Source: Felis catus (taxonomy: Eukaryota). From it: a stretch of 64,000 bases of DNA. The position numbers and the translations under genes are program-made. Shown piece after piece: positions 3,035-52,653 of the stretch. The DNA lies in assembly GCF_018350175.1 (NCBI RefSeq), contig NC_058368.1, positions 88,910,001 to 88,974,000 of the forward strand, written 5' to 3'. Every line of letters starts with the position of its first letter. Position 1 is the first letter of the stretch. The notes beneath the pieces are model-generated. The model was not told the DNA's origin, did no database searches, and was given only the letters and a program-made list of their open reading frames with translations.

Positions 3035-3341
3035 TGTTAGGATGTCCCTGAAAGGGGACGGCCATCTCGCCAGCACGACGGAAGAAACTGAAGGGTAACC
3101 AATCACCGAGCAACAGCACAACCTGGCACGAAAGAAAGACCCACCTGAACCTAAACCCGGAACTGCTGCAGCTAAAAAACCCTACCCCACCATACCCAGG
3201 CATGACTTCCCCGACTCCTCTCACTCCCTGAGTCACGGAACCTTACCCAGAACCTTAGTACCCAATAAAGCCTTAAACTGCAAAAAAATTCTTTTTGACT
3301 CTAACTCCTATCTTTACCCTTCCCAACTCCTGACACTAACA
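3035..3341 (+). repeat. 5' LTR of the ERV-Fc provirus (307 bp)
   Basis: TG...CA termini, CCAAT box, AATAAA near 3264, followed directly by the PBS. Matches 16703-17101. Confidence 0.95.
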
Positions 3342-11308: not shown

Positions 11309-14300
11309 GGCCCAGACTCAGTAACTCCAGTGACCCACGCTGAACCCAGGGTAAAACTCCAGGTAGCAGGTAAGTCCATCTCCTTTCTGTTGGACACGGA
11401 TGCTACCTATTCTGTCCTGCCAAGCTATTCCGGCCCCACTACGCCATCCTCCGTTTTGGTCATGGGCATAAATGGCACCCCCTCCATTCCCCCATGCACA
11501 CCAGTACTCACCTGCTATCTGGATGGCCTCCACTTCTCCCACTCCTTCCTAGTCATTCCCTCCTGCCCCATCCCCCAGTTGGGCCGAGACATCCTCGGTA
11601 AATTAGGAGCCTCTATACATTTACCAGCTATTTGCTCCTCTCCCTCCCCCACTCATCTCCTACTGGCCCTTATCACGGATGACACAGACCACAGCCTCAA
11701 CCCACACCCAGACCTCCCAGTAGACCCAGTCGTATGAGATACATCCACCCCAACAATTGTCACCCCATCACCAACCTGTCCTCATTAAACTCAAAAATCC
11801 ATCACAATTCCCATCTAGACCCCAATACTCAATCTCCCACACCCACCAACTAGGCCTGAAGCCCATCATCGATTGCCTACTCAAGGAGAGCCTCCTAATC
11901 CCATGTCATTCCCCCTGCAACACCCCGATCTTGCCTGTAAGAAAGCCAAATGGCTCATATAGACTAGTTCAAGACCTCCGAATAATCAATGAAGCTGTAA
12001 TTCCCATCCATCCAGTAGTGCCCAACCCATGTACCATCCTCTCCCCCCATCCATGACCCATTTTACAGTGCTTCATCTCAAAGATGCCTTTTTCACCATT
12101 CCCTTACATCCTGAGTCCCAACTCCTCTTTGCCTTCACATGGCAAGATCCAGTCACCTCTCTGGCCTGCCAACTCACATGGACAGTACTTCCCCAGGGAT
12201 TTCATGATAGTCCCCATCTCTTTGGGCAGGCCTTGGGCAGGGATCTCCTCAAAGCCCCCCTCTCCAGTCACTGTACTCTACTACAGTACGTAGATGACTT
12301 TCTATTATATGGAACCTCTTTCGACCACACCAAACAAGATACAGTCCAGATCCTAAATTTCCTGGCTAACCTGGGGTATCGAGTCTCCCCACACAAAGCC
12401 CAAATCTGTACTAATACAGTCACATTCCTGGGAGTCTCACTCACACCTACTACCAAGGCCCTAACCCAAGATCATCTCCAAGCCCTCCAGACCCTGTCCC
12501 CACCTGCCAATGCAGATGAAATCCTCTCCTTCCTGGGTCTAGTGGGCTTCTTCCAACACTGTATCCCTAACTTTGCTATACACGCAGCCCCCCTATACAA
12601 AGCAGCCAAAGAAACCCCCCAAGGCCCACTCTCCAGCCCGGAATCTGTCGCAAGGGCCTTCCAACGGCTGGTCACATCTCTAGTCACTCAACCGGTCCTT
12701 TCCCTTCCTAATGTTTCAAAGCCTTTCCTCTTATACACAGATGAGAGGGCTGGAATTGCAACAGGGCTCCTAACCCAACCATGTGGCCCTAAGTTACAAG
12801 CTGTCGCCTACCTTTCTAAACAACTGGACCCTACCATCAGGGGGTGGCAACCCTACCTCAGAGCACTTGCAGCAGCAGCCACCCTAACCCAAGAGGCACT
12901 CAAACTCATCCTACACTGCCCCCTAACGGTACTTTCACCGCGTCTATCTGATCTCCTTACACATAAGGCCCTGGCACACCTCTCCCCATCACGCATACAA
13001 TTGTTCCATCTGCTCTTTATTGGAAATCCTGAAATATCTCTCCAACTCTCCCCCAGACTCAATCCTGCCATGCTACTTCCACAAATCAACCCCAAAGACA
13101 CTTCACAGCCACTCTTTCACTCCTGCACTGAACTTAAAGATATTCTCTCTAAACCTCCATCTAACTTAAAGGACCTTCCCCTCACTTCCCCTGATTTCAC
13201 CGTATTTGTAGACGGTAGCTCACTAGTTGACTGCAGGGGCCACCGACGAGCAGCGTATGTAGTTACATTAAACCAAACTCTAGAGACCCAGACACAACCC
13301 ACAGGGACCACATCCCAGAAGGCTGAACTCACAGGCCTCATTAGGGCTCTCCAATTGTCCAAAAACAAAAGGGTCACAATATACACAGACTCAAAATATG
13401 CTTTCCTTATTGCACATACACACTCCCACTTATGGGAAGAAAGAGGATTCCTCACAACTAAGGGTACCCCCATCATCAACAGGCCACTCATAGAGAAACC
13501 CCTTGAGGCCCTCAAACTCCCACAGGAAGTGCCATTGTCCACTGCAAGGGCCATCAACCCCTAACCACAGAGATAGCTATAGGAAATCACAAGGCTGACA
13601 ACACTGCTAGACAAACAGCTCTCTCTCTCTTGACCCAGTTCCTATGGGCATCCTCACTGAAGATACAACTCCCGATTATACCCCAGATGAACAAAAACAA
13701 TACATGGCCCATCCCAATGCCCACACCAACGCAGGCTAGATCATGCTGGGCTCCCGACTAGCCCTCCCAAATAGCCTAGTCCCTTCCCTACTAACAAAAA
13801 TCCACAAAACCCTACACATTGGGCCAGAGGCCACCTTCCGCTTCCTTGAGCTCATTATGTACCACCCCCACCTACGACAACTGATCACCAAAACACACCA
13901 ACAATGCACCACATGCGCCACAGTCAGTTCCCAAGGGAGAATGAAGCACTCATCAGATGCGGGGCCATCTCCCAGGCGAAGACTGGCAAATAGATTTCAC
14001 TCACATGCCAAAACACAAAAAATTACGTTATCTCCTTACTATAATTGACACTTTTACAGGGTGGATAGAAGCCTCCCCCACCTCATCTGAAGGGGCCTCC
14101 ACAGTGGCTGAGATCCTTCTTAAGGACGTCATTCTCCACTTTGGTCTACCGAGAAGGATACAGTCTGACAATGGGCCTTGCTTTCATCTCAGCAGTCACC
14201 CAACAGGTCTCCAAAGCTTTAGGTATTACTTGGAAACTCAACATACCATACCACCCCCAGTCCTCAGGTAAGGTTGAAAGGGCCAATGGCCTCATAAAAG

Positions 14301-14825
14301 ACCATCTCACTAAACTCTCCATAGAGACTCGGCTTTCTTGGCCTCAACTCCTACCTATAGCACTCACCTGACTCCGAGCCGCTCCCCGAGGACCCACAGG
14401 CCCCAGCCTATTTGAACTCCTATACAGGCGACCCTTTCTGTTACCCCAACCCCTACCAAAAGATCCTCCTCCTTTGGCTGCCTATCTCCCTTACCTCAGC
14501 CTGCTCCGACACCTGATTTGACAGTACGCTGACCTTATTCTACCAGCTCCCACCGATCTCTCTTCCCCTTCACTATCCGTAAACCTAGGAGACTCAGTGC
14601 TCCTTCGAGTAAGACAAAAACCAACCCTTGCCCCCCGATAGGAGGGTCCCTACACAGTCATACTCACAACCCCCACGGCTGCTAAATTATTGCGCCACAC
14701 CCTGTGGGTTCACACCTCCGACCTCAAGCAGGCCCCCCTTTACCCCCCATACCAGAAGAGTCGTGGACCTCCCAACCAACCAGCTCCCTCACCCTCAAAC
14801 TAACCTGACAGGCCCCTTCATGACT
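11309..14825 (+). pseudogene. pol: ERV-Fc pro-pol (protease, RT, RNase H, integrase), disrupted; end approximate
   Basis: LLDTDATYSVL protease; YRLVQDLR, LPQGF and LLQYVDD RT; FVDGSS and YTDSKY RNase H; WQIDFTHMP, SDNG and PQSSGKVER integrase; GPY motif. Confidence 0.93.
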
Positions 14826-15017
14826 GACCCTTCCCCTTGGTTTTCCACCTTCACACTCACAATATTACATGAGCTACAACTCTCCCACTCATCTGACCCC
14901 ATCACCCTCCCCTTATTTCTCTCCTGGGTCTCGACTGTTGGCTTCAGGGAACTCTCTCCGATTTCTCCCCCATCGAAATCTCCTTCTTTACCTTTTTGCT
15001 AACGATACTTATATATC

Positions 15018-16692
15018 ATGATGATACTTCCCTTGTTACTCCTTATCATCCCCCTTATACCCTCACAACCCTCCTATAGGTGGGTTTTTTACCTATCCGA
15101 AACTTTTAATGGACACACCTCTATCATATCCTCTACCCCTTGCCCCATTGTTGGGTGCCAAAATCCAGTCACCTTTAAATTCCCCTCTTTCAACACCCTC
15201 CAAGCCTCCACACAGATTACTCCCGCCATTTGCTTTTTATATGACCAAACCAAGATATGCTCCCAAACCTCCCCCAACCAATATGGAGGATACCCCTATC
15301 ACTATTGTAATATACACTGGCTCAACCTATACTGTTTCACAGGACCAAGGACGGGCCACTTCTGCTTAAAAAATGGCAACTTTACCCTTACTATCCCTGA
15401 TCCATGGGATACCCGCTAGCAAACCGGAATAAAGGCAAACTGTATCAGAACAACCATTTCTCTAACCCCATCTCCTCTTTAACCATCTATCGAACCTATG
15501 AGTCCTCAATGTCTCCTTCCCTCTCCAACCTTAAAGATCTTACCCAAGTAATCATGGACCAAGAAGACCAGCTCAACACACAACTACAGACACCCCCTGC
15601 ACAACATCCCTTCTCATGGCTTACATTCATCAGACAAGGAGCGATCCTGCTTAACCACTCAGGCTTAACCAACCTGTCACACTGCTTTCTTTGTGCATCC
15701 TTTCAGCGGGATCCAGTAATAGCTGTCCCATTACCCACACCCTTTCCCAACACCACTAACTCCATCAACCACTCCAGAAGTCAAATCTCCCTACAGGTTC
15801 CCATCCTCACTGAGACCCCTCAAGGCAACATGTCTCACCCAATATGCTACTCCTCTCATGCCTCCCTAACTTGCCCCTCCCCCCTGCCTATGCCTAGCCA
15901 CGACCCTCCCCCAGGGGGATTCTATTGGTGTAATGGAACAGCTTATAAACAAATGCCAAAAAATGCTTTTGTCTGTCTCCCAGTCACCATTATCCCCCAA
16001 CTCACCCTATACGGACAGGAAGAACACCATCAACTCCTCGAATTCCATCTCCAAAAACGAGCCGTTTTCCTCCCACTAATGGTCGGACTATCCCTTGCCA
16101 CATCCCTATTGGCCGCCGGGGTTGGGACCGACTCCCTCGCACACTCTATTACCTCCTCCAGGGACCTGTCAGACTCCAAATTGCAATAGAAGCCTCAGCA
16201 ACCTCCCTATCCACCTTACAAAGGCAGATCAACTCCCTAGCACAGGTCACTCTACAAAACCGATGAGCCCTAGATCTCCTGACAGCAGAAAAAGGGGGAA
16301 CATGCCTGTTCCTGAGGGAAGAATGTTGCTACTACATCAATGAATCAGGCTTAGTTGAAACCAATATAGAACACCTAAAGGAAATCCAAAAAACTCTATC
16401 CACCCGCCCAGGATCCTCAGACCCCCTAACCTCCTGGTGGCAGTCACCCCTCTTAACTTGGCTCCTCCCCACAGTCACCCCACTAGTTGCTATCTGTATA
16501 ATACTTATGCTCTTACCTTGTTTTCTCTGTTTCATACGGACATGAATTCATGAAGTTTCCCAGTTCGCATTTCATCAAATGGTGGTCCGGCCCTATTCCC
16601 GCATTCCAACCTCAGATCCCACATACTATGGCATCACCCTTACACCCGCAAGAAGCAGCCAGATCAGATCCGTCACCCATTATCATCCATAA
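15018..16692 (+). pseudogene. env: ERV-Fc env (SU+TM), about 2 frameshifts and 2 stops
   Basis: Signal peptide MMILPLLLLIIPLIP; CFLC motif; furin-like LQKR followed by fusion peptide AVFLPLMVGL; ISD LQNR*ALDLLTAEKGGT; CX6CC CLFLREECC; TM anchor; TAA at 16690-16692. Confidence 0.92.
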
Positions 16693-16702
16693 GAGGTTGG
16701 AA

Positions 16703-17101
16703 TGTTAGGATGTCCCTGGAAGGGGACAACCATCTTGCCAGTGTGCTGGAAGAAACCTCGCCAGCGCGTGGGAAGAAACTGAAGGGCAACCAATCACCAA
16801 GCGCCAGCACAACCCAACAGAGAGCCCCGAGCAGTGCGCCAGAAGAAACTGAAGGTCAACCAATCACCGAGCAACAGCACAATCTGGCACGAAAGAAAGA
16901 CCCACCCGAACCTAAACCCGGAACTGCTGCAGCTTAAAAACCCTACCCCACCTTACCTGGGTATGACTTTCCTGACTCCTCTCACTCCCTGAGTCACGGA
17001 ACCTTACCCAGAACCTTTGTTCCCAATAAAGCCTTAAACTGTAAAAAATTCTTTTTGACTCTAACTCCTATCTTTACCCCGCCCAACGCCTGACACTAAT
17101 A
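16703..17101 (+). repeat. 3' LTR of the ERV-Fc provirus (399 bp)
   Basis: Preceded by the purine tract aagaggttggaa. Homologous to 3035-3341, with ~92 extra bp of U3 repeats; ends ...ctaata. Confidence 0.95.
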
Positions 17102-18023
17102 AATCGCAGATCTCCACTTCTTGTATGGACCATGCCAGGGTGTGGGAAGGGGATGGGGAAATCCTCACAACTATTATTCTGCTTGACTCTGCCCAGTGGA
17201 GGGAGACAAGGGCAGGGGCACCCTAGATGGTGTGGGCACAGGGCAGGGTGAGACAGGACAGCCCTGAGAGTGCACAAGGAGGAGTTGTCTTCTCTGGGGA
17301 AAGCAACAAGGGATAAACATTCAGAGAAAAAACAAGACCAACCTCAGAGAAACAGATGAGAATGGAAAATCCAGAAGATTATACCTTTCCTCTTCAGAAG
17401 GATTGATTCTCCAGTCCCCTGAGTCAGATCTAGTGGAAAGGAGACATGACAACATTCAGGATGTTTGAATCTTGAATCAGATACCACGTTGCAAAAGGCT
17501 CCTCAGTATGAAATCAGCATTTAACAGTAAGATGAAACAAACAACGTGGGGGAGGGGAGAACATGTTTGTCTGAGATATGTTTCAGGAAACACCACCTGA
17601 GGGATCCAGAGGCACTCGACTTTCCAGGCCAATTTCAATATGAAATCATTTTTAGAGAAAAAGTAATCAACAGAAAATAGTATTCATTTGTATGACTACT
17701 TTAAAATGCACTCTAGAGGTTACCACACATCCCTGCATCCAGGAAGGGAAAGGGCACAACGTTGAAGGTAATGGAGGAGAGAGGCTTGTTTCAGGGTGAG
17801 GAGGTGGACTTGGGCCCCACTTCAAGGCACTCCACCCTAGGACTTCTTTCCCAAGAGGGAGGTGAATACAGGTGTTGATTTGTTCAGAAATGAGCTAAAG
17901 AGATGATCAGGAAGTGAGGTTGGGAATAAGGGATTGGGAACGTGGGACAGGGCTGTGGGGACAGAAGAATTCAAAGTGTGGGCTTATAGGCAGGCTCCAT
18001 TCAAACGTGGAAACGGGTATAAT

Positions 18024-18399
18024 TGTTATGCCCAGAATTCGTGATCCTCAAATACCACCAGGGAGCTGAGTCCGATGCAAAAGCAAAAGAGCCTTTGTTC
18101 GAGCTAGCTCGAGTTCAATCCCCTACCTGCACCGACGCAGCAGTGAGATACCAGGGAGAGAGAGTGAGTTTCAAAAGCACAAAGGTTTTATAGGGGTCTA
18201 GAGGCAGTTGGTGAGGTAATGGCTATGGCCTCAGCTGATTGGCTGGGGTAGGATCGGAGTCCTGTTACGCAGGTCGCTGGGCATGTTTTAATCAGGAAGT
18301 TTGAACGGGTAAGCGGGAGGTTACTCAAGGGGAGGAGGCATGGTCTAGGTGAAGGACACAGAACAAGATGGAGTCGGCCAGCATAGGCCCGCCCTTTCA
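18024..18399 (-). repeat. 3' LTR of the gammaretroviral provirus
   Basis: On the minus strand it starts TGAAAG right after the PPT and ends ...CATAACA. Contains CCAAT and TATAAAA. Confidence 0.95.
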
Positions 18400-18409
18400 T
18401 TCCCCCCTT

Positions 18410-18709
18410 GTCATGTAGCTTAGGGACCCAATCATGGGACCGGCTGCATTTATGGTGACAAGGGGAACAGAGTTTGGAGGTTTACGCAAAGTTCTGGGAA
18501 GCAAGTGTCCCTGGGGTGGCTCTGGGAGCTCTGATTATTGTCCCCGAGCTGGTGTCTATGATCTGCCAGGTGATGTTTTGGGGGGCGTGGGGACTCCCGG
18601 CAGCATGAGCAATGACAAGCAGAGTTAACAGAGTTACCAATATTAGGTGGGTCGAATGTGCTGTAGCTTGAGCTTGAGCAGGTTGTGTTGGTCCCGATTG
18701 AGGGCCCAT
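18410..18709 (-). pseudogene. env: env remnant (signal peptide plus first ~50 SU residues)
   Basis: HLILVTLLTLLVIAHAA signal, then GSPHAPQNITWQII (gammaretroviral SPH motif) and, after a frameshift, HPRDTCFPELCVNL. The PPT follows within ~50 bp. Confidence 0.82.
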
Positions 18710-21700
18710 CACATGACGAAGTCCTTCTGGATCGAGGAGGGGTCCGCTGGCCGAACGTGGGTATGATGGACCCAGGTCACGATGCCATCTACTTTGAGAC
18801 CGGTGGGGGTTGTCAGCACCACGATGTAGGGTCCCTTCCAGCGCAGCTCGAGGGTCTCTCGGTGGTGCCTCTTGACGTAGACCCAGTCTCCCGGCCTGTA
18901 CTGATGAGGTGTTGGGGTTGGGCCAGCCTCGTAGATGGCACGGAGGTGCAGCCAAATGTCCTCGTGCGCCCTCTAGAGCCCTCTCAAGGAAAGAAAAAGT
19001 TCTTGACCTTTAAACTCAGCAATAAGTTTAGCTCGAAGGCTGGGAATAACAGGGGGTGGCCTGCCAAACATGATCTCGTAGGGAGTAAAACCCAGAGTGT
19101 AAGGAGTGTTTCTAACCCGGTAAAGGGCGTACAGTAGGAGAGTCACCCAGTCCCCGCCAGTCTCCATGGTTAATTTGGTAAGGATCTCTTTTAGGGTTCT
19201 ATTCATTCTTTCTACCTGTCCTGAGCTCTGGGGCCTATAAGCACAATGTAATTTGCAGTTTGCCCCCACCGCCTTGGCTACTGCCTGTGTTACCTGTGAG
19301 ATAAAAGCTGGTCCATTATCTGATCCTACCATGACAGGAAAACCATACCTGGGTAAGATGTCTTCTAGTAGCTTCTTGGCCACCGTCTGAGCCATTTCAT
19401 GCTTGGTTGGGTATGCCTCCACCCAGCCAGAGAAGGTGTCTGTAAATACTAAAAGATATTTTAACCATACTTTCCTGGTTTGACTTCAGTGAAGTTGACT
19501 TCCCATTGGGCTCCCGGTCTGGTGCCTCTGAGCCTGGTTCCCTTTTTATTTGATGTGGCTCTCGCGTTGGTGAGTTGGCAGGTCTTGCAGGCAGATACAA
19601 CTTGCTCTATTTTGGTGTCCTGTTAGTGAATCTTGATTCCGGCATGTCGGATTAAGTCTTTTAATTTTCGGGCCCCCATGTGAGTAGACCGATGCATGTG
19701 CTCTAATATTGAGACTCTGAGCTGGTCTGGCAGCATGAGTTCCTTGTTAGTTGTATACCACCATCCCTTTATCTCTTGGGCCATGGGGAGTTTCTTGATC
19801 CGCTGTAACTCCTCCTGGGAGTATTTGGGCTGGTCTGGTAAAACTGGGTCTCCCAGGTCTGGTAGTTGTATGGTCACGGTGGGGACTGAAGTAAGGGCTA
19901 CTGCCTTGGCTGCCTGGTCAGCCTTTTGATTACCTCTAGCTACTGGGTTATCAGCTTTTTGGTGCCCTTGGCAGTGGATGATGGCTAGCTTGGCAGGAAG
20001 CCATAAGGCTGTAAGCAGGTTAAGTATCTCCTGCTTATTCTTTATAGTCCGTCCTTCTGCCATCAGTAACCCCCTCTCCTGATAAATTGCCCCATGAATA
20101 TGAGCTGTGGCAAATGCATAACGGCTGTCTGTGTAGATGTTAAGCCGTTTTCCAGCTCCCAGCATCAGAGCCTTGGTGAGGACTATGAGCTCTGCTCGCT
20201 GGGCTGACGTTCCGGAGGGTAGAGCCTCCACCCAAACGGTGTCCGTTTCGGTGACCACCGCTGCACCCGCATACCTGTGTCTGTCTCGCACAAAGCTGCT
20301 GCCATCAGTGAACCAAGTAGCCTTGGCATTGGAGAGGGGCCAGTTGGTCAGGTCCGTCCAGAATCCATGTACTTGTTTCAGGATTCCCGCACAGTCATGT
20401 AGTGGAGCACCTAGGTCAGGGTCAGGCAGCAGGGTTGCAGGATTGAGGACTGCACTGGGGTGGAATCGCACTCATGGAGGGTTGAGTAGGAGGCTCTGGT
20501 AATGAGTCACACACGTGTTGCTCATCCATCTATCAGGAGGCTGTTTCAGGACCCCTTCAATGGCTTGTGGGGTCGTGATCCAGATCTCCTGTCCTAGGGT
20601 CAGTTTGCGTCCTTGACTAGAAGTGCTGTCGCCGCAATTCTTAGGCATGGCGGCCAGCTGGCAGCCACTGGGTCTAGTTTCCTAGAGGACAGGTAAGCCA
20701 CTGGGCAGTTCCAGGGGCCTAAGGCTTGAGTTAGAACCCCTTTTGCTATTCCTTTATGTTCGTCTACAAAGAGGTGGAAGGGCTTCGTAATGTCTGGTAG
20801 GCCCAGGGCTGGGGCACTTAGGAGGGCCTTTTTTAACTGATTAAAGGCAGTTTCTTCTTTTTCAGCCCATTTAAATGTTTTCTCCTCTTTTGTAGCTTCA
20901 TATAGGGGCCTGGCGATCTCAGCAAAACCTGGAACCCAGAGGCGGCAGTAGCCGGCTGATCCTAGGAATTCCCTCACTTCTCTTCGGGAGGTGGGAGTAG
21001 GGATCTTTAGGACAGTTTCTTTTCTGGCATCTGATAACCACCTCTGTCCACCCTCCAGGATATATCCCAGGTAACTTACCCTCTCCCTGCATATCTGAGC
21101 CTTCTTCGCGGATGCCCAGTACCCTAAGGCCCCCAGGGTAGCCAGCAGGTCCTGGGTCCCTCGCTCACAGTCTTGGACCATGTCGGCAGCAATCAGGATG
21201 TCATCTACGTACTGTAGAAGGGTGAGGCCAGGGTGCTCCCTTCTGTACTCACCCAGGTCCTCGTGTAGTGCCTCGTCGAAAATGAGGTGAATTTTTGAAT
21301 CCCTGAGGTAGCCGTGTCCAGGTGAATTGCCCACTGTAGCCCTCCTCTCAATCATGGCACTCGAAGGCAAACAAGGGTTAGCTCTGGGGTGCCAGCGGCA
21401 GACTGAAGAAGGCGTCCTTTAAATCTAGCACAGTATACCAGACACTGGAGGGCGCCAAGGAGCTCAAGAGAGTATATGGGTTGGGAACAATTGGGTGTAT
21501 GTCTGTGACCCTCTTATTTACTTCCCGGAGGTCTTGTACTGGCCGGTAGTCATTTGTGTGAGGCTTTTTGACCAGCAGTAGGGGGGTGTTCCAGGCAGAC
21601 TACCAAGGAACTAGTACCCCTAGGCTTCGTAGTCTCCGGATGTGTGGCTGGATCCCCTTCCGGGCCTCCTGAGACATGGGGTATTGTTTGATCCTTACCG

Positions 21701-22228
21701 GACTCTCTCCTGGTTTGAGCTCTACCAGGACTGGGGTCCTGTGAGCGGCTAGTCCCATCCCCCCCGTCTCTGCCCAAACTGAGGGGAATTCTTGTAGCCA
21801 TCTGTCTATATTATCCTCTCTCGGGAGCGCCTCCTGGTGGAGGCGGTATTCATCCTCCAGTTTCATGGTCAGGACCTGGATGGGTGGCCCTTGCCATTGG
21901 TGACCTGAGGACCCCCTTGTCTGAAAGTTATCTGAGCTCCAATCTTGGTCAGTAAGTCCCGTCCTAACAGCGGGTAGGGGCATTCTGGTATTACCATAAA
22001 GGAGTGGGATACCCGGCCCGTTCCCAAATCTACTGTTCTTCGGGTAGTCCATGAATACTGGCTCATATCAGTTGCCCCTTGTACCCAGGACTTCTTCCTG
22101 GCTAGTTTTCCTTGTGGGGTGCGGAGGACTGAATGTTGTGCTCCGGTGTCAACAAGGAAGTCAACAGGGGACCCCTCCACTTTAAGAGTTACCCTGGGTT
22201 CGGGGAGAGGGTCCAAACCCCGACTCCC
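18643..22228 (-). pseudogene. pol: Gammaretroviral pro-pol, disrupted
   Basis: [10 protein letters not shown] and [10 protein letters not shown] protease; [21 protein letters not shown] and YTDSRYAF RNase H; SDNGPAF and [16 protein letters not shown] integrase. Confidence 0.95.
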
Positions 22229-23572
22229 CTAATCAGTTCATCTAGCTCTAGGACTTCTACTCGATCAGTCTTGCTTCCCTTCCTGCTGGCCCTTTTCAGA
22301 CAATCTCGGGCCCAATGCCCTATCTCCTTGCAGTATGTGCACTGATCCTTCTGCAGCCTCTGCTTCCCCCCCTTGGTGGTTCCTTTACCTTTTCTTGCAT
22401 TGTCTGCCAGCTGCCGGAGATGGAGGTCTCGTTCTTCGGGGAAGTCAGCAGTGGTAGCTAGTAGTATTCTGGCCAGGTCTCGAGTCTGCTTACTGCTGGC
22501 AGCCTCCATGGTGCGAGCCTGCTTGTCCTCAGGAGGCTCCCGGTTATTATATACCTTTTTAGTTACCACCAGTAAGTCCTGCAGACTTTTTTCTCCTAGT
22601 CTATCTATTTTCTGTAATTTTCTCCTAATGTCTATGGCCGATTGGTTTACAAAGGCCATGATAACAGCTGCCTTGCTTTCCGGAGCCTCTGGATCCATGG
22701 GGGTATAGATACGGAATGCCTCCATGATCCGTTCTAAAAAGGCAGCCGGAGATTCATCTTTTCCCTGTTGTACATTTCCTACCTTGGCCAAATTGGTTGG
22801 CTTTCTAGCAGCCATTCGGAGACCCCCCATTAGAGTCTGGCAGTAGACCCGGAGCCTCTCCTTACCTTCTGCCATGTTGAAATTCCACTGGGGCTGAGTT
22901 AAGGGGAAGGAGGCATCTATCTGAGCCTGGTTGGTGGTGGGATTCCCGTCTGCGCCCGGAACTAGTTTTTGGGTCCCATTGAGGATTCTTTCTCTTTCTT
23001 CAGTCGTGAACAAGACCTGCAAAAGCTGCTGGCAATCATCCCACATGGGCTGATGGGTAAAAAGAACAGAGTCTAATAAATCAATAAGCCCTGCCAGTTT
23101 CTCGGATAACTTAGGATTCTGGGCTTTCCAATTGTAGAGGTCACTAGTGGCGAAAGGCCAATAGTGATGGGGCTGATTCCCCTCCGCATCTGGGGGTCCG
23201 GTGGCTCGCAGGGGCAGAATAGTGGAGTCGGCGGTGGAGGCGGATTGCTCCCTCTGAGCCCTTTGGTAAAGGACGGGCTTCCCACTGGAGCGTTTCTGCC
23301 TCCCGCTCTCGAAAAGCATCTGCCTCCCCTGGAGGGGGAGGATGGTGTTCTTCTGGCATCCTAGAGGGGTTATACGGGGGAGGAAAAATTAATTCTTCTT
23401 CAGTACCCCCTTGTAGGACAGGGTAGAGGGATGCTGAAGGCTGGGTAAGACTTTTCTTGTTTTCCTTCTTTGTCCCCTGCAAAGCAAGAATGGGTTTGTC
23501 TCCGGAGGGAGCGAGGCTAGGAAGGGCTTAAGCCAAGAGGGTGGGTAGAGGGGTAGTCTGAGTCTGTCCCAT
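22229..23572 (-). pseudogene. gag: Gammaretroviral gag with most of matrix deleted
   Basis: MGQTQTTPL start at 23572; PPPY late domain; capsid WPFATSDLYNWK and QGKDESPAAFLER; single knuckle CTYCKEIGHWARDC; TAG-G read-through stop at 22229-22231. Confidence 0.93.
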
Positions 23573-24006
23573 AACGTCTGTCCAGTAAGTCCACAGAACA
23601 AAACAGAGAAACACAAAAACAAACAAACAGAGGGCCCCTAGAAAGTCTTCCAACTCCATGGAAGCAAAACTGAAAGCTAGCTTAGACCTTTGAGGGGATT
23701 CCACATCCCTCCAAAGACAACGGCCTCACGCCGACCAGCGGGAGCAACCTGCCTCATCTCAGACCTTTGAGGGGATTCCACATCCCTCCAAAACAGATGA
23801 GGGGATTCCACGTCCCTCCAGAAGGGAGGATCGGAACGTCTTCTGAAACTCCCGGCCCTTGGTCCTCCAGTGTGTCCACTGAGACCACGTCGGGCACTAC
23901 CAGAATTCCAGAAATGAGCTCACACAGAAAAGACAGAACAAACAGACAGACACTAACCGTGGCCAGTCAGGCTCTCCGGGTCGGGGGTCCCTCGGGGGTC
24001 TTGGGG

Positions 24007-24024
24007 ATCCCGGACGAGCCCCCA
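24007..24024 (-). promoter_or_regulatory. Primer-binding site, tRNA-Pro
   Basis: The minus strand reads TGGGGGCTCGTCCGGGAT, the canonical Pro PBS. Confidence 0.97.
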
Positions 24025-24026
24025 AA

Positions 24027-24390
24027 TGTTATGCCCAAAATTCGTGATCCCCAAATACTGCCAGGGAGCCGAGTCCGATGCAAAAGCAAAAGAGCCTTTA
24101 TTCGAGCTAGCTCGAGCTCAATCCCCTACCTGCACCAACGCAGCGGTGAGATACCAGGGAGCGAGTTTCAAAAGCACAAAGGTTTTATAGGGGTCTAGGG
24201 GCAGTTGGTGAGGTAATGGCTTGGCCTCAGCTGATTGGCTGGGGTAGGGTCGGAGTCCTGTTACGCAGGTCGCTGGGCATGTTTTGATCAGGAACTTTGA
24301 ACGGGTGAGCGGGAGGTTACTCAAGGGGAGGAAGCGTGGTCTAGGTGAAGGACACAGAACAAGATGGAGTCGGCTGGCGTAGGCCCGCCC
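24027..24390 (-). repeat. 5' LTR of the gammaretroviral provirus, missing its outer 5 bp
   Basis: Aligns with 18024-18394 (~20 substitutions and 2 indels by hand count). The terminal tttca (minus TGAAA) is absent. Confidence 0.93.
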
Positions 24391-27371: not shown

Positions 27372-27718
27372 AAATTAATAAATCTTTTACAAATGAAATA
27401 TAAGATATGAATAGACATTTTTGCAAATAAGACATCAAGATGGCTAAAAGACACATGAAAAGATGCTCAACATCACTCATCATCAGGGAAATACCAATCA
27501 AAACCATGATGAGATCCCACCTCACTCCTATTAGAATGTTTAACATTAACAACACAAGACATAATAGGTGTGGTGAGGATTCAGGGAAAGAGGAAGCCTC
27601 TTGTACTGATGGTGGGATTGCAAACTGGTACAACCACTCTGGAAAACTGTATGGAGGTGCCTGAAAAAGTTAAAAATAGAACGACCCTATGATCCAGCAA
27701 TTACGCTCCTAGTTACCC
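26508..27718 (+). mobile_element. L1 ORF2 3' fragment, truncated at both ends
   Basis: [17 protein letters not shown]...FNKWCWEN and MAKRHMKRCSTSLIIRE motifs. Confidence 0.9.
27175..27390 (+). mobile_element. CAN-SINE inserted in the L1 fragment
   Basis: Head ggcatgctgggtagcacag...gatttcagctcagggcatgatctcatgg, (CT)n, aataaattaataaa tail. Confidence 0.85.
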
Positions 27719-28070
27719 AAGCAAGCAGCAGAGGCCCAGCCTGCATCCTCCTCTGACCTGAAAGCAGGGACTGGCTGCTCTACTGAGAAGCAGAGCTATG
27801 GAACAGGAGGCACACAAGTGTCTGGGGTGTATCATGGGATGGGGCCTGAATGAGGCCCAGGCCTGGCCCTACACCCAGGCTGTGGCAGGGGTGCTGTTCA
27901 GGAGGTCAGAATTAGGGGAGTGTGGGCTCTTCCCTGCCCCCTGGCTCACTCCCAGGTACCCCGATGACCTCAGTGCTGGCTTGTCCTCTGAATTCCTCAG
28001 GTATCCACTCAGTCCCAGGGGTCGCTCCCTTCCCAAATAAGGCCTTAACCTCATAAAGAGTCTGTAGATA

Positions 28071-28152
28071 GTATTGAGGAGGGCACCTTTTGGGATGAGC
28101 ACTGGGTGTTGTATGGAAACCAATTTAACAATAAATTTCATATATTGAAAAA
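28071..28152 (+). mobile_element. Very short (~82 bp) 5'-truncated felid L1 3' end
   Basis: Closely matches the 3' terminus of the 4792-10938 L1. 16-bp TSD aaagagtctgtagata (28055-28070) / aaagagtctgtaaata (28153-28168). Confidence 0.92.
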
Positions 28153-28469
28153 AAAGAGTCTGTAAATATTGGAAACTGCAAGCTACACCTGAAAAATGTG
28201 TACAAATTATGTCCCCAAAATTGTTCTAGTTGTACCATTCTAAAGAAATAGAGATTAATGGTATACATGTACCCTTCAGTACAAGTATGAGAGTCAAAAT
28301 ATTGGAATTGGCCCAATTATTCAACTTGTAGAGACACAGAGTAAATGATGATGTGTGGCCACTGAGGATGCAGAAGGGGACAGGACTTGAGCCTGTCCAT
28401 TGTGGGGACATCAGGTACTAAAGAGCATACTGATGGAACCCTCCCCGCCCAACCTGTCACACAACTCAT

Positions 28470-28494
28470 ACACACACACACACACACACACACA
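28470..28494. repeat. (CA)n microsatellite
   Basis: Pure ac run of ~12 units. Confidence 0.9.
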
Positions 28495-28589
28495 AATTGC
28501 TGCACTCAAAGAGAAAGAACTGGAAGGATGGACACCGTGTCTAATGGCAAATATTTCTTGACAGGGGTATATCATTTTCTTCATTTGTA

Positions 28590-28781
28590 TTTGTATTTAT
28601 TTATTTAATATTTTTTCCTAATTATTAATTTTGAGAAAGAAAGAGAGAGAGAGAGAATCCTGAGGAGGGCTTCCTGCTGTCAGTGTAGAGCCTGATTTGG
28701 GGCTTGATCCCATGAACGATGAGATCATGACCTGAGACAAAATCAAGTCAGACACTCAACCAATTGTGCCACCTTGGCGCC
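28590..28781 (-). mobile_element. CAN-SINE (older subfamily)
   Basis: Minus-strand head ggcgccaaggtggcacaattggttgagtgtctgact...tcaggtcatgatctc, with (CT)n and A-rich tail. Confidence 0.85.
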
Positions 28782-29269
28782 TGTCATTATTCAAATTTTT
28801 ATTTTTTATTTAAGAAACAACATCGGTATAAAACCTATATCAGAAGTAAATGAGAAGATTTCATATTTGAATTTGATATTTATTTAATATGCACCTTAGA
28901 CTAATTTAAAAATGGCCTGTCCAGGAAAATGAAAGGTCTTCAAGGTATTACTCTGCTCCAGACATTTCTCTTGTGGCTTTTGGCTCTCCAGTCAAACTTC
29001 TAAATGAGATCCTTATCCCAGATAATGAAGATATTTCAAGTAGGGGGCTTCACATAATCTTTGCTCTTTGGGGAATATTCCTGTGTCATAAAAATATTAG
29101 TTTCATTGAATATTTAACCAATTATTAATCACTCTCATGTTATGTAGCCAGACACAATAAGCCATGTTGTGTGATTGCACACACCTGAAAACCCCAGAGG
29201 AGCTACAGCAGCAGAAACTGAGGCCAGTGGTTGCAGAGACCAGGGTGAGGGTTGAGCCATGGCTGATGG

Positions 29270-29660
29270 GTAGTATACATGTGTCTGTGATGGAAATGTT
29301 CTAGGAGTACATAATGGTCATGGTTGTATAATTCTGTGAATGTACGTAATGTCACGTCAATGTATAATTTAAAAAGATCAGAGTAGGGGCGCCTGAGTGG
29401 CACAGTCGGTTAAGCGTCCGACTTCAGCCAGGTCACGATCTCGCGGTCCGGGAGTTCGAGCCCCGCATCGGGCTCTGGGCTGATGGCTCAGAGCCTGGAG
29501 CCTGTCTCCGATTCTGTGTCTTCCTCTCTCTCTGCCCCTCCCCCGTTCATGCTCTGTCTCTCTCTGTCCCAAAAATAAATAAATGTTGAAAAAAAATTAA
29601 AAGAAAAAAAAATGTCAGAGTAAAATTTTATCTGAAGTTATGTTTTATTTACAAAGAAAA
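29270..29660 (+). mobile_element. Old L1 (L1M-type) 3' end, split by a SINE
   Basis: gtgatggaaatgttctagg...atggtcatggttgtataattctgtgaatgtac...gtaaaattttat resembles ancient eutherian L1 3'UTR ends. Confidence 0.55.
29386..29612 (+). mobile_element. Young CAN-SINE (SINEC_Fc-type)
   Basis: CpG-rich head ggggcgcctgagtggcacagtcggttaagcgtccgacttcagcc, (CT)n, AATAAA, A tail. tcagagta repeated on both sides. Confidence 0.95.
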
Positions 29661-30099
29661 TATCTAAGGCCGCTAAATATCTCTATACAAACCACAAAAA
29701 TTACAAAGACTGCAATGACAGCGGAAGGGAATTCATCCTTTGGGGCTGCAGCCAACATGAGCCACTGCTCAGGAGCTAAGGCTGGTTGCTCAGCTACAGC
29801 AGGTGGTTGCTCCAGCCCTTCCATGACCCCTCCAGCTGGGGCTGGAGGCTGCTCAGGTTGTGGGTCCACCAAAGGGGCAGGTGGCTCTTCCAGCTCCTGA
29901 CAGTGAATCAGAGCTGGGACTACCACTTGCACTGGTGGGGACGCTGCAGGGAGGGTCACCACTTCTTCTAATTGCTGAGCTCCAGAATGAGTGGTGGCTT
30001 CAGGCAGCCTGGGCTGTGAAGCTGCAGTGGGCACCACAGAGATAGCGGGGGCTAGCTCCTGAGGGACATCTGGATCTTGCTCTGGAGCTGGTGCCATAG
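29645..30099 (-). pseudogene. RALGDS-like terminal exon: Pro/Ala/Glu-rich linker plus hydrophobic C-terminus
   Basis: ttcttgaag|CTATGGCACCAGCT is in phase with the previous exon and open for ~150 codons to TAA at 29645-29647, which overlaps AATAAA (29644-29649). Confidence 0.75.
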
Positions 30100-30355
30100 C
30101 TTCAAGAATAGAAACTGTCATCACCATGATTGCCATTCCATGGCCCTTCCAAATAAAGGAAACCTCTCTCACAGACGTTGTCATCTGAGTCAAAGAACCC
30201 ACCAGGAAGAATTCTCCCCAGATGGCAGGCTAATGGTACAGTGATATGAGACTATGCGCTCCTCCTAGCCCAACTGCAGTCTCAGGAAACATGCACTGTG
30301 TGGCATACCTTGTCCCCTCCACATGCCCACATCTCCCACACAGAGTCCTCCTCAC

Positions 30356-30556
30356 CCACAGACTCTGGCTCATTGGGCTCAAGGTATCTCCACAATGAGA
30401 AGAGAAAGTGGGCACAGCGCTCCAGATCTGAGCCTTGCATGTTGAGCCACGTATGCCACGTATGCTAGCAGCATTTTCAGGCTGAGGAATTCTGGGGGCT
30501 GGAAAAATTCCTCAGGGTAGTAGTCCATCCAGGTGCCCAAAATGGAGGAGATGGCC
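30356..30556 (-). pseudogene. RALGDS-like exon (REM C-terminal part), 201 nt, frameshifted
   Basis: tatcgccag|GGCCATCTCC...TCTGTGG|gtgagg. Translation AISSILGTWMDYYPEEFFQPPEFLSLKMLLAYV/LNMQGSDLERCAHFLFSLWRYLEPNEPESV. 9-bp tandem duplication at 30448-30465. Confidence 0.88.
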
Positions 30557-31491
30557 CTGGCGATACAAAAATAGCCAGAAGAACCAGGACGGGGTGCTCC
30601 TCCCGCACTGATGTCTCAGGACATCCCTGTTGGACCTGGCCTCTATGCCTCCTGCTCCTGGCTGTCCAGAGGCTGTTCCTACACCTTGTGACTTCGGAGT
30701 CCTGCTTGAGATAGTTTAGTCACTGAAGAGGGGCTGGCCAAAGTCTTTTTGACTGGGACCCGTTAACCAATGATGTGGCCAAGTCTGTCCTTCTTGGGGA
30801 AGCCAGACATACTCCTTGGTGTGTCCACCTGCCTACCTCCCACTTGAACTGAACTCCGTGCGTGAGTGGCGGGGTGGTGTCAGGATGAGTCAGTGCCTTC
30901 ACTGCACACACTAGTGCTCCATGAAAATTTGAACAAATATGGGACAAAGGGACTCTGTCTCTTACCTGGGCTTGCTGGGACCCTCCTCATACCTTAAATG
31001 TGACGACCTGTGCCTATATGCTGCCTCATTCACTCAGTGCACATGTGGGTGTCCTCCCACTGACACTGGTCTCCCACAGGGTGGGAGATATCTGGTCCTT
31101 GAACCCTCACTGGGTCTCCTGAACACTTGCTAAGCACCCACTGTTGAAGTTCCACAAGGTGGTGAGCGTGCTCCTCCCCAAAACCTTTAATCTGGGTCCC
31201 CTGGTGGGGGTGGAGGCAGGGCTGGGAGTGGGAAGGGATAGGGTTGGACTCTCTAAGGGGCTGACTCTGTCCTCTGGTGCCCTTTTCTATTTCACTGTGC
31301 CCACAGCCTATCCTCTAACCTACAGGACAGGACCCTTTTCCTTGCTTCCAGGGAGAAGCCCTCAGACCTTTGCCCTCTCACAGGACTCTCAGATGTGTGG
31401 GATGCTGGGTCCTGCAGCCCCTCCCCCCCACAGTCCCGGCACTGCCCTCTTGGAGAAGGAAGGCCTTCTAGCATGACCTCAGCCTACTCAC

Positions 31492-31551
31492 ATTTTCTCC
31501 TGCTTCCAGGGTCCGCCATCCTCCTCAGTGTCAGGAAGGAAACAGCCATAT
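31492..31551 (-). pseudogene. RALGDS-like exon, 60 nt
   Basis: ggcctcctccag|ATATGGC...AAAAT|gtgagt. Translation (R)YGCFLPDTEEDGGPWKQEK(M), cf. RalGDS RYGCILPYSDEDGGPQDQLKN. Confidence 0.85.
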
Positions 31552-32152
31552 CTGGAGGAGGCCAGAAGGGCATCATATAAGTTGTCCTGTGGATACTACC
31601 TCTTGTCATATCCAGGGTCACTGACTGCTGACTAGAATGGAGCTCTGGAGGGGAGGGTGCTGTCTGCTCTGTGCATTGGATCCCAGTCAGCTCCTACAGA
31701 AATGCCTGCATGTAGTGGGGCTTCCTGTATGTTTGATGATTTTTAGGGCCCCATTCCACCCCATCACACATATTGGAGTGGGCCTGAGCCTCATGCTTAT
31801 TCCCCGGTATTTTGCTCTGGTTTGCCCCAGGATTCATACCCCCACATGGAGCCTCACATCTCATTTTCAAATGGGAAAACAGCCCAACTCAAGACCTGGT
31901 GACATTGAGTGATGAGGCAAAAACCTCATCATGGGGTAGAGGACAATGATATCCCAGGGAAGACACAGCCCTGCCAGCAGACCTTTCCACAGGGCCAGGG
32001 TCACTTTCCGTGCAGGGCCTCACTGTGTCCCTGTAATTATTCTACCCTGATCAGAGAAACAAACTGAGACTCGGGAAGGTTTGGTGAATTTCCCTAGACT
32101 CAAAGCCTTAAGGGGCTGAATCAAACTGGGCTGCGGAGGGCAGGGTGCTCAC

Positions 32153-32352
32153 CTCATAAACAATAGTTTCAGGACTTGTTGGGTGGTAGCAAAAGCTCTG
32201 TACGTGCCCAAGAATGTGCAGAGGTAGGTGTGGTCTCTCCCCAGGAAGGCAGGCACCAGGTGCTCCACTCGCTGTTCCAATAGCATCCAGCCTCCTTTGA
32301 TGGTCTACTCCACACAGTTCTCATTCTCATTCACGGGTGCGGCCTTTTTACC
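32153..32352 (-). pseudogene. RALGDS-like exon (REM N-terminal part), 200 nt, internal stop
   Basis: ctctgttctacctcag|GGT...ATGAG|gtgagc. Translation GKKAAPVNENENCVE*TIKGGWMLLEQRVEHLVPAFLG...TYRAFATTQQVL. Confidence 0.88.
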
Positions 32353-34527
32353 CTGAGGTAGAACAGAGGAGGGACACAAAGTCAGACACAGCACCATGGA
32401 CATCAGGAGGGTTGGGGTCCAGAATGCAGACCAAAACCTCCAGCCCCAAGTGACTTGTGGCAAGAGTGAGACCTGGGTGCCCACAGTAGGAAAAAGGATC
32501 TTGGCATTCACATGAGAATTTGAGGTGGGGAATGACTGAACACGTTAGGATCTGAGGTCAGATTGTTAGAGGAGTATGGACAGCACCTCCCTGCATTAAC
32601 AGCATCGTCCCTGTGATTACCAACAACACACTCCTTTCTAGAGATCAGAAAACAGGCATTTCCTGGGATGGGGTTGGAATCAGGATAATAGGACATGTAG
32701 GATGTTCAGTGCAGCACTGTGACATGGCAAAAGAAGAGAATCATGTGAAATCACCACAACTGTGAAGGGCTGAATGGGTGTGGTAACCAGTGTCCCTTCT
32801 GGAATGTTGTCTAGGCAGTGAGGCCCCTGTTCCTGATCTGGAGGGGCTCCAGGGATGTTTTCCTTGGCAACCAAACTGAAGGGCAACAACATAATATCAT
32901 GAACTGCAAGTCCCTTTGGGAAAATATCCCTGTTCATCATAATCATGTGCCAGATGTGGAGAAGGTGTGGAAGGATGGCCAGGCCAACAGGAACACTTGG
33001 AAAGAGGAGGTGGGAAAATATGTACAATAGTGCACACATGCTCTAGACAGAATGGGACGTGAAATGGTTTTAGGTCTCTTTTCTGATATTCCTACAGACA
33101 TGTGGAGAGTGACTTTTTATCTGGCCATGGCAAGGGCTGGGCCATAAGAACATGTTTGGGGAGGAGATCGGGTTCCAGGTTCATCTGGGGACAGAAGTAG
33201 TGTATAAGTTTCTAGGAATTTGTCCATTTCTTCCAGATTTCCCATTTTATTGGCATATAATTGCTCATAATATTCTCTTATTATTGTTTTTATTTCTGCT
33301 GTGTTGGTTGTGATTTCTTCTCTTTCATTCTTGATTTTACTTATTTTGGTCCTTTCCTTTTTCTTCTTGATTAAAGTGGCTAGTGGTTTATCAATTTTGT
33401 TAATTCTTTCAAAGAAAAAGCTTCTGGTTTCATTGATCTGTTCTACTGTTTGGTTTTTGTTTTTTTGTTTTTTTGTTTTTTTGTTTTTTTTTTTTTTGGT
33501 TTCGATAGGATTAATTTCTGCTCTAATCTTTATTATTTCCTGTCTTCTGCTGGTTTGGGGTTTTATTTGCTGTCCTTTTTCCAGCTCCTTAAGGTGTAAG
33601 GTTAGGTTGTGTATCTGAGATCTTTCTTCCTTCTTTAGGAAGGCCAGTATTGCTATATACTTTCCTCTTATGACTGCCTTTGCTGCATCCCAGAGGTTTT
33701 GGGTTGTGGTGCTATCATTTTCATTGACTTCCATATACTTTTAATTTCTTCTTTAACTCCTTGGTTAGCCCATTCATTCTTTAGTAGGATGTTCTTCAGT
33801 CTCCAAGTATTTGTTACCTTTCCAAGTTTTTTCTCGTGGTTGATTTCGAGTTTCATAGCATTGTGGTCTGAAAATATGCACGGTATGATCTCGATCTTTT
33901 TGTACTTACTTAGGGCTGATTTATGTTCCAGTATATGGTCTATTCTGGAGAACGTTCCATGTGCACTGGAGAAGAATGTATACCTTTCTCCTTTAGGATG
34001 AAATGTTCTGAATATGTCTGTTAAGTCCATCTGGTCCAATGTGTCATTCAAAGCCATTGTTTCCTTATTGATTGATTAGATGATCTGTCCATTGCTGTGA
34101 GTGGGGTGTTGAAGTCTCCTACTATTATGGTATTAGTAATCGATGAGTTTCTTGATGTTTCTGATTAATTGATTTACATATTTGGGTGCTGCCACATTTG
34201 GCACATAAATGTTTACAATTGTTAGGTCTTCTTGGTCTATAGACCCCTTGATTATGATATAATGCCCTTCTGCATCTCTTGATACAGTCTTTATTTTGAA
34301 GTCTAGATTGTCTGATATAAGTATGGCTACTCTGGCTTTCTTTTGTTGACCATTAGCATGATAGATGGTTCTCCACCCCCTTATTTTCAATCTGTAGGTG
34401 TTTTTAGGTATAAATTGGGTCTCTTGTAAACAGCATATAGATGGGTCTTGTTTTCTTATCCATTCTGTTATCCTATGTATTTTGATTGGATCATTGAGTC
34501 CACTGATGTTTAGAGTGAGTACTGATA

Positions 34528-48188: not shown

Positions 48189-49460
48189 GACTGACACATT
48201 AATTATTTAGTAGCATGGTATTTAACCTCCATGTATCTATGGTTTTTGCAGATGTTTTCTTGTGGTTGACTTTCAGTTTCATAGTGCTGTTGTCAGAAAA
48301 GGTGCATGGAATGACTTCAGTCTTTTTGTATTTGTGAAGGTCCATTTTATGACCTAAAATGGGATATGTTCTGAGAATGTTTCATGTGCACTTGTAAAGA
48401 ATATGTATTCTGCTGTTTTAGGATGGAATGATCTCAATATATCCGTTAAGTCCATCTGGGCCAATAGGTCATTCAAAGCCATGTTTCCTTGTTTATTTTC
48501 TGTTTAGATGGTCTACCCATTGTTGTAAGTGGGGGGTTAAAGTCCCCTACTAGTATTGTATTCTTATCAATTAGTTCCTTCATTCATTAGTAAGTGTTTA
48601 ACGAATTTGGGTTGTCCTAAGTTGGGTCAATATATATTTACAAGTGTTGTATCTTCTTGTTGGATTGTTCCCTTTATTGTGATATAGTGACCTTTTTGTC
48701 TATTGTTACAGTCTTCGTTTTAAAGTCTATTTTGACTGATATAAGATTGCTATTCCAGCCTTCTTTTGATAACCATTTGCATGAAAAATGCTACCCCATC
48801 CTCTCATTTTCAATCTGTAGGTGACTTTAGGTCTAAAATGGGTCTCTTGTAGGCAGCATGTGGGTGGGTCTTGTCTTTTAATCCATTCTGCCTCCCTATG
48901 GCTTTAATGGATTAATTTAGCCCCTTTACATTCAAAGTCATTATTGATGGATACCATTTTATTACTTGTCTTGTGATTTTTTTGAAGATTTTCTCTGATC
49001 ATTTTCATGACATTATCTCTTTCATGTTTTCCTGATTTTCTTTAGTGATATGTTTGGATTCCGTTATGTTAATTCTTTGTGCATTATAGTGGTTTTTGAT
49101 ATTTGCCAACCTTTAGGTTTGTATATAACCTCTACTATATATAGCTCTCTACATTAAGTTGATCATAATTTGACTGAACCCCTTGTTTTCTCCTTTCCTC
49201 CACACGTTTGAGGTTTATGGTATATGTTTTCTATCCTTTTCTGTGAATTCTTTGAATGGTTTCTGTACAGAAAAATTCATTTCACTGCATTGTATTTTCT
49301 ACTGACACTTTTCATCTGTCAATTCCACTGAAAGAGTTCCTTTTAATATTTCTTGATATTCTGGTTTAGTCATCATGATCTGTTTAGTTTTTGGTAGTCT
49401 GAGAAACTCTCCTCATATTCTGAATGATACCAATGCTGTAGAGAGTATTCTTGACTACAG
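48189..49460 (-). mobile_element. Old L1 fragment (ORF1 3' end, inter-ORF region, ORF2 endonuclease)
   Basis: Antisense EN-domain sequence (ccattgttgtaagtggggggttaaagtccccta; ggtctaaaatgggtctcttgtaggcagc), heavily diverged. Confidence 0.85.
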
Positions 49461-52400: not shown

Positions 52401-52653
52401 GACACCAGACTGATACAAGTTTACTTAGGAATAGAAAAGGAAGTTGTGCTGTTTGCAACAACTGGGATGGAGCTGGAGCGAAGGATTGTGGGCAAATACC
52501 CAACCTTAACCCTCACCATCACCTTAGAGGCCTAGGAACACAATCCATAAGCCTCACCCTCACCTAACACTCGCCCTCAACTCAACCCTTCGGGGAGTGC
52601 TCTGCACTACTGGCAAAGAGGTCACTACCATCTCCTCGTCCCTAATGCTAACA
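49461..52653 (+). repeat. Diverged satellite, ~10 monomers of ~315 bp, rich in TAACCC-like hexamers
   Basis: An anchor motif like tttgggacacatgactga recurs at ~49605, 49935, 50255, 50560, 50878, 51197, 51510, 51757, 52065 and 52395. Many cctaaccctaa runs. Confidence 0.88.

Follow-up and report, generated by a model that had tools for sequence, protein, structure and literature searches.

A RALGDS-derived locus in the cat window

Analysis of the window, by which we mean the whole 64-kb stretch of cat DNA under study, revealed four spliceable exons on the minus strand (32352-32153, 31551-31492, 30556-30356 and 30099-29645), all with AG/GT ends. As the original prediction had claimed, they rebuild a REM region and the Pro/Ala/Glu linker that follows it, and they represent exons 3 to 6 of a gene family. 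Exon 3 (32352-32153) encodes the N-terminal half of the REM and is placed by its splice ends, by tblastn with paralogs, by a spliced joint in run X7 and by a match to the Pfam RasGEF_N model (PF00618; E 5e-7, above the curated cut-off). It contains an in-frame TAG at 32307-32305, at a position where the paralogs have Trp in the tblastn alignment. Exon 4 (31551-31492, 60 nt) has intact splice ends, is in frame and is skipped in some database isoforms (P0012 compared with P0093). Exon 5 (30556-30356) encodes the C-terminal half of the REM, and its frame is broken by a net +7-nt duplication near 30455-30449, seen as a 7-nt gap in the alignment with the seal gene. An assembly error was ruled out as the source of this frameshift, because a contig of an independent run (X6 record 6, 30311-30547) carries the duplication unchanged, with 0 differences over 237 nt.

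Exon 6 (30099-29645) comprises 123 codons of Pro/Ala/Glu linker, a hydrophobic tail and the stop, and all 20 of its homolog matches were felid, in agreement with the felid SINEs of the region. It could be read directly as 150 open codons, about the length foreseen, with the C-terminal end AVIAVFVIFVVCIEIFSGLRYFLCK and a stop at 29647-29645 that overlaps an AATAAA (29649-29644), a candidate poly(A) signal also found at the stop of the seal gene. The tail is predicted to form a C-terminal transmembrane helix of about 22 residues (29722-29657), followed by 3 residues. Beyond the stop, the 3' flank (27718-29622) is non-coding, 67-72% identical to the seal locus, interrupted by a SINE inserted at about 29386-29614 and without a CDC25 exon. 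The CDC25 and RA parts of three full-length relatives (P0247, P0055 and P0199) gave no CDC25 match in the 64-kb window by tblastn. The REM control in the same search matched at 1e-15, and the single strong P0199 match falls on the REM exon, the P0199 model containing a third REM. The expected absence of a downstream CDC25 exon was thus borne out over the whole window.

On the 5' side, the sequence at 32353-33183 is what remains of the intron that precedes the first REM exon. Its homology to the seal gene (L001 1776-2467, 73%, blastn) stops at about 33183, beside a 3'-truncated L1, an ORF2 fragment that extends from about 33199 upward. L001 1-1775 and the paralog N-termini, which cover exons 1-2 and the start codon, had no match anywhere in the 64 kb; these exons were not found further upstream in the window either. 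The window copy is thus a dead, 5'-truncated duplicate with three lesions: the TAG and the frameshift, both already proposed, the latter now traced to the 7-nt duplication, and the loss of exons 1-2 at the L1 junction, which we add. It is an unprocessed duplicated pseudogene, with its introns kept, its frame disabled and intact paralogs elsewhere.

An amplified carnivore family and its transcription

The family was assembled as a set of 320 proteins from homolog searches, cluster look-ups and a profile search (best 150 of 256 profile matches), a set that is redundant, rich in isoforms and biased by its query; the search was seeded on the tail. All full-length family sequences are annotation models. 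The family behind the window copy is real and carries automatic labels only; the multi-copy models found across carnivores confirm the amplification that had been proposed. In the annotations many of its loci are mislabelled as GEF-like, or as proline-rich, taperin-like or app1-like.

Of the proteins in this set, 174 could be aligned to the distal linker, isoforms included; the tail lies at the C-terminus in 103 of them, is internal in 10 and is absent in 61, the last group including a few rows from outside the family, such as RALGDS itself. Tail-bearing models were named in 10 felids (Felis, Leopardus, Neofelis, four Panthera, two Prionailurus and Acinonyx) and also in Suricata, Halichoerus, Phoca, three Ursus and Mustela, which with the felids makes five carnivore families. 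A fox model has the same hydrophobic segment in an internal position. The tail is therefore common to paralogs, as anticipated, and the tails of meerkat, seal, bear and mink rule out a feature private to the window copy or to cats. It has been lost in many paralogs, including the P0022 cluster of lion, tiger, jaguar and snow leopard, the elephant seal, the otter and most dog models. Full-length family models begin with a Cys-rich MFSCC exon, and 31 of the 320 proteins run from MFSCC to the tail.

Scanning with Pfam detected PF00618 in 12 of 13 proteins, above the cut-off in 10, no CDC25 domain (PF00617) in the tail-bearing models scanned, and no RA domain in the family proteins scanned. No RA exon lies in the window either. 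None of the 8 CDC25-containing proteins among the 320 has the tail. REM-only, tail-less models with an MFSCC-type first exon were found in horse, pig, cattle, rabbit and elephant, and bats also have REM-only models. The tail is absent in all the non-carnivore models examined, with a best hydropathy of at most 1.65. The REM-only design with its new Cys-rich first exon is older than the carnivores, and the tail alone looks carnivore-specific.

The seal locus L001 was obtained from a metagenome scan that yielded at least one locus, and it is 95% identical to a grey-seal protein. It has all six exons, with intron positions matching the window, and the AATAAA overlapping its stop is the sole such hexamer in 2 kb. 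About 2 kb of its 3' flank are homologous to the window and non-coding. No CDC25 exon was detected by tblastn in the 4.5 kb downstream of the gene, which agrees, as does the tail's absence from CDC25 proteins, with the expectation that paralogs do not splice into CDC25 exons.

Full-length felid models lie on contigs of 165-170 Mb or on unplaced scaffolds. The felid models on contigs of 238-244 Mb, among them the closest relatives of the window copy (P0010 and P0025), are without exception partial or tail-less. In a REM tree of 39 rows, a 95/88 branch sets all carnivore rows apart from the others. In this tree the carnivore REM branches are much longer than those of RALGDS; in addition, the REM or the linker multiplied repeatedly and independently in cats, rabbit and dogs, and the unplaced cat scaffolds bear many near-identical copies. 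All three observations would suit fast-evolving, amplified conflict genes, engaged in germline drive or in host-pathogen contests, in which the anchored REM serves as bait and turnover is adaptive. We regard this explanation as improbable.

Transcription was explored by mapping reads of four of the 24 runs listed (X6, X7, X8 and X24) at 80% likeness. One X7 contig is spliced exactly over the first intron (joint 31551-32153, 601 nt, GT-AG, minus strand), and the loose ends agree; other contigs of X6-X8 also span introns and may be DNA. At the tail, the loose ends in X6-X8 continue with tail codons of paralogs and not with CDC25. From the 12.9 million records of the oligo-dT run X24, 98 reads were recovered. 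These reads, of which 93 are second mates, are stacked at 29719-29900 at the end of exon 6 in an orientation that fits minus-strand RNA if the library is a standard stranded one. They stem from a divergent paralog with less than 90% likeness, in which the tail sequence turns into a run of nine T, so that its frame is not fixable; the tail is gone from P0192, the nearest collected protein. None of the four runs gave a transcript end. These data are consistent with splicing and minus-strand polyA+ RNA, seen for paralogs only. Alternative isoform models in RefSeq are normally built with transcript support, and the many such isoforms of the family suggest that it has this support.

Predicted structure and constraint on the tail

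The hydropathy of the window tail is 2.77 (Kyte-Doolittle, over 19 residues), within the range of 1.96-3.37 seen in 103 relatives; the other frames of the window give -0.13 and none, and in the seal another frame reaches 2.04. An AlphaFold model of the intact cat paralog P0093, built with 30 sequences, has a mean pLDDT of 58.9 and displays two low-confidence N-terminal helices, a confident helical REM at about 100-223, a disordered linker and a terminal helix of 22 residues (356-377, pLDDT about 90). The transmembrane helix proposed for the tail is therefore upheld as a prediction. The best fold match of the P0093 REM is Rlf (rmsd 3.0, E 0.026), followed by SOS, with no match reaching 0.001, and Rlf is also the sole PDB match by sequence. 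Felid tails carry a Glu in mid-helix. No second hydrophobic segment was detected by hydropathy in MFSCC-type models, the tail-less Leopardus P0095 peaking at 0.58; a second hydrophobic stretch is present in P0138-P0142, models that start inside an intron. A modelled complex of the P0093 REM with the CDC25 domain of P0247 scored 0.00 in two runs, in which the alignments were unused, and speaks neither for nor against such a pairing.

Several observations raise the question of whether the REM is a passenger, in a protein whose two membrane anchors and disordered spacer act as a two-membrane tether or spacer, or as a structural membrane protein. In the seal, a 2-nt and a 1-nt deletion compensate each other: about 28 REM codons run out of frame before the frame is restored, so that the frame from MFSCC to the tail is held while half of the REM is scrambled. 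The models of grey, harbour and elephant seal all contain this scrambled stretch, and PF00618 does not match the one from the grey seal. Felids also have a paralog (P0001, P0003 and P0121-P0123), conserved in cat, tiger, lion, jaguar and clouded leopard, that combines a tripled linker and an intact tail with a REM that is small or missing in its models. Moreover, REM identity is 59% between cat and bear and 42% between cat and mink, against 88% between two RALGDS proteins. On the other hand, the REMs of cats, bears and mink are still predicted to fold and are still recognised by Pfam, and S-acylation of the N-terminus is itself inferred. The REM is the older conserved core, because non-carnivore members retain it without any tail. 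A passenger REM is an unlikely explanation.

The measures of selection come from a single cat-seal pair, that is, from two DNA sequences, in which constraint is measurable but modest and falls on frame and tail hydrophobicity more than on sequence. Over the 450 coding nt of exon 6 there are 0 gaps and 0 stops between cat and seal, compared with 23 indels in 1792 nt of introns (Poisson 0.003, or about 0.02 with a 6-nt gap next to the stop included), and in simulations at 30% divergence the chance that 150 codons stay open is 0.02-0.05. Among the tail codons, changes affect 3 of 27 second positions versus 20 of 54 first and third positions (Fisher p 0.018), and T survives at 15 of the 17 second positions that carry it, compared with 101/175 and 107/222 intron sites (48-58%). 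Under neutral mutation of 30%, a tail of KD>=2 survives in 17-27% of simulations.

Purifying selection on the amino acids is weak. Between cat and seal, dN/dS came out at 0.43 (0.28-0.66) for exon 6 and 0.54 (0.33-0.89) for the REM, but the dS of exon 6 is inflated by a GC3 shift (0.43 vs 0.63) and its dN of 0.33 is near the intron distance. Exons are also not better conserved than introns (62-75% vs 68-77% identity). These similarities would be expected of a duplication-prone segment of little function, with permissive transcription, decaying copies and a T-rich exon end that is hydrophobic by chance. The same reading could draw on the broken state of the window copy and many others, on the setting of the window copy, which L1s and ERVs surround and where no further host gene is apparent, and on the copy-number variation annotated as RALGDS in pigs (available part of PMC3716681). 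Nevertheless, it accounts poorly for the preserved frame, the constraint on second positions and a hydrophobic tail that is specific to one frame in the window, or for tails that persist in five families and frameshifts that are compensated in the seal and, by sequence, in the meerkat. We consider that duplication debris has a low probability, and that an anchored functional protein of some kind is rather probable.

Proposed protein and comparison with known systems

The preferred explanation, to which we assign a probability of roughly 0.55 as a whole, is that the window holds a dead duplicate of a carnivore family, derived from the 5' half of RALGDS, whose intact members are likely tail-anchored adaptors or decoys. 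The intact members are predicted to be non-catalytic proteins with a Cys-rich basic N-terminus, a REM, a long disordered linker and a C-terminal helix. We infer that an early eutherian, partial duplication of RALGDS joined a new Cys/basic first exon, likely S-acylated to judge from its Cys and basic residues, to the REM exons; the linker exon would then have turned terminal in the ancestor of the carnivores and acquired a transmembrane tail, and birth-and-death duplication would have followed. The tail may derive from a remodelled first CDC25 helix or from intron read-through. An FP motif lies 141-150 residues past the end of the REM in most members of the family; this distance is 144-145 residues in three RALGDS-like proteins (92 in the porpoise). 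A profile comparison of the tail with the first CDC25 helix (hhalign) was not significant (P 0.26 local, 0.87 global).

SOS contacts its substrate Ras through the CDC25 domain only, and its REM bears an allosteric site for Ras-GTP (available part of PMC6767298). The family has no CDC25 domain, and its protein should therefore carry out no exchange catalysis; a cytosolic REM would be held at the membrane by the tail, probably together with a second, acylated N-terminal anchor. Taken as a step on its own, a role of such a protein in Ras/Ral-GEF signalling, as an adaptor or decoy held at the membrane, is tentative. More speculative is a doubly anchored carnivore protein (acylated basic N-terminus, REM, disordered spacer and transmembrane tail), which cats would amplify in tandem arrays and splice into chains of up to 8 REM units, and which would serve as a lineage-specific, dosage-tunable Ras-Ral decoy or membrane tether and as the counterpart of the human orphan CDRT15 genes.

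The mammalian set of Ras-switch genes is described as near-invariant in the available part of PMC3141262, which gives a 96% conservation of orthologs across human, mouse and rat. If the preferred explanation is true, a REM-only offshoot of RALGDS, extending from elephants to cats, would be an overlooked, fast-evolving branch of the Ras pathway, with a membrane anchor specific to one order and copies that turn over rapidly. The family would let REM function be tested without a CDC25 partner and would be a clear example of a new transmembrane domain born at the end of a truncated duplicate. If it is only duplication debris, its value is limited to annotation; the window locus itself is an ordinary dead duplicate either way.

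Among the matches listed in full-text literature, no paper describes a tail-bearing RalGDS family in its title or the start of its abstract, and gene-family tables that accompany cat and carnivore genome papers may list such loci. The available part of PMC2453318 concerns RGL2 only, and in that of PMC11216403 the whole word 'ral' is absent. The family N-termini matched no Pfam model, and an Atlas search with P0069 1-60 gave no usable match. Human CDRT15 and CDRT15L2 may resemble the family in the first exon and in a late hydrophobic segment, and are not known to have a REM. CDRT15 is a protein of 188 aa predicted at the plasma membrane (PMC10403009, in part), and rat Ralgdsl11 lies about 40 kb from Cdrt15l2 in the accessible portion of PMC13477028, which also tabulates a new RalGDS-like gene. 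No title among the CDRT15 matches listed concerns a link to a RalGDS-type family.

The non-carnivore REM-only models share with the family the MFSCC-type first exon, the REM as only domain and amplification, but those examined are tail-less and bear automatic labels with no described function. RGL4/Rgr retains a CDC25 domain and is not known to have a REM, the reverse of the family, which has a REM without CDC25. The two are alike as mammalian offshoots of RALGDS with a patchy distribution, and RGL4 is among the mammalian Ras-module genes treated in PMC3141262, as far as its available part goes. Like tail-anchored proteins, family members are predicted to have a single hydrophobic helix, no more than 20 residues from the C-terminus, and a cytosolic-type domain ahead of it; unlike them, they have an additional predicted lipid anchor at the N-terminus.

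The closest comparison is with the Ral GEFs RALGDS and RGL1-3 (Rlf structures 4JGW and 5CM9). The family REM is 57-64% identical to that of RALGDS, the residues before the REM and the Pro/Ala/Glu linker are retained, and the best match in both sequence and fold is Rlf. In contrast to these proteins, the family has no CDC25 and RA domains and is predicted to lack exchange activity, and it is multi-copy and fast-evolving, with a Cys/basic first exon and a hydrophobic tail. Because the two defining domains are absent, the family is not, on its sequence, a member of the Ral-GEF family; judged in the same way, it is a truncated, non-catalytic paralog of RALGDS with a new C-terminal anchor, a hydrophobic tail found order-wide.

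Chained REM units in gene models and a tripled linker

In the database models P0002, P0004-P0009, P0011, P0079, P0161 and P0170, which come from cat, Geoffroy's cat, cheetah and leopard cat, 2-8 REM units are chained ahead of a single tail. Three further models (P0181, P0221 and P0228) belong to the same multi-REM group. In these models the chains arise by splicing from the linker exon into the next copy, an arrangement that may represent real read-through between copies or may be an artefact of tandem arrays. A four-REM form was also found in rabbit, independent of the felid chains.

The linker unit itself is present three times in a felid paralog (P0001, P0003 and P0121-P0124), the tail of which is intact. 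This paralog is retained in cat, tiger, lion, jaguar and clouded leopard, and its annotation labels include proline-rich protein 36-like and app1-like.

Frame-restoring lesions and flanking SINEs

The REM exon of the seal locus L001 (L001:2895-2995) carries deletions of 2 and 1 nt that compensate each other, and the frame is preserved to the tail. Similarly, the meerkat model P0175 shows a short off-frame stretch immediately ahead of the tail. A SINE is located just 3' of the AATAAA both in the cat copy (window 29386-29614) and in the seal copy (L001:5500-5950).

Retroviral elements and tandem repeats in the window

On the minus strand, 18021-24390 holds a broken endogenous retrovirus whose terminal repeats (18021-18394 and 24024-24390) are 92.5% alike and whose gag, pol and env frames are fragmented. 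At ~12000-17100 the plus strand carries another decayed, retrovirus-like element, which displays fragments resembling pol and env; the segment 16842-17099 is 93% similar to 3081-3339. The window also contains a tandem array of ~10 units of 112-113 bp (59351-60493, ~71% match) and additional degenerate repeats at ~49400-52650.

Possible relation to CDRT15

The first exon of the family may resemble CDRT15-type proteins. In the rat, according to a table in PMC13477028, Cdrt15l2 lies ~40 kb from Ralgdsl11.
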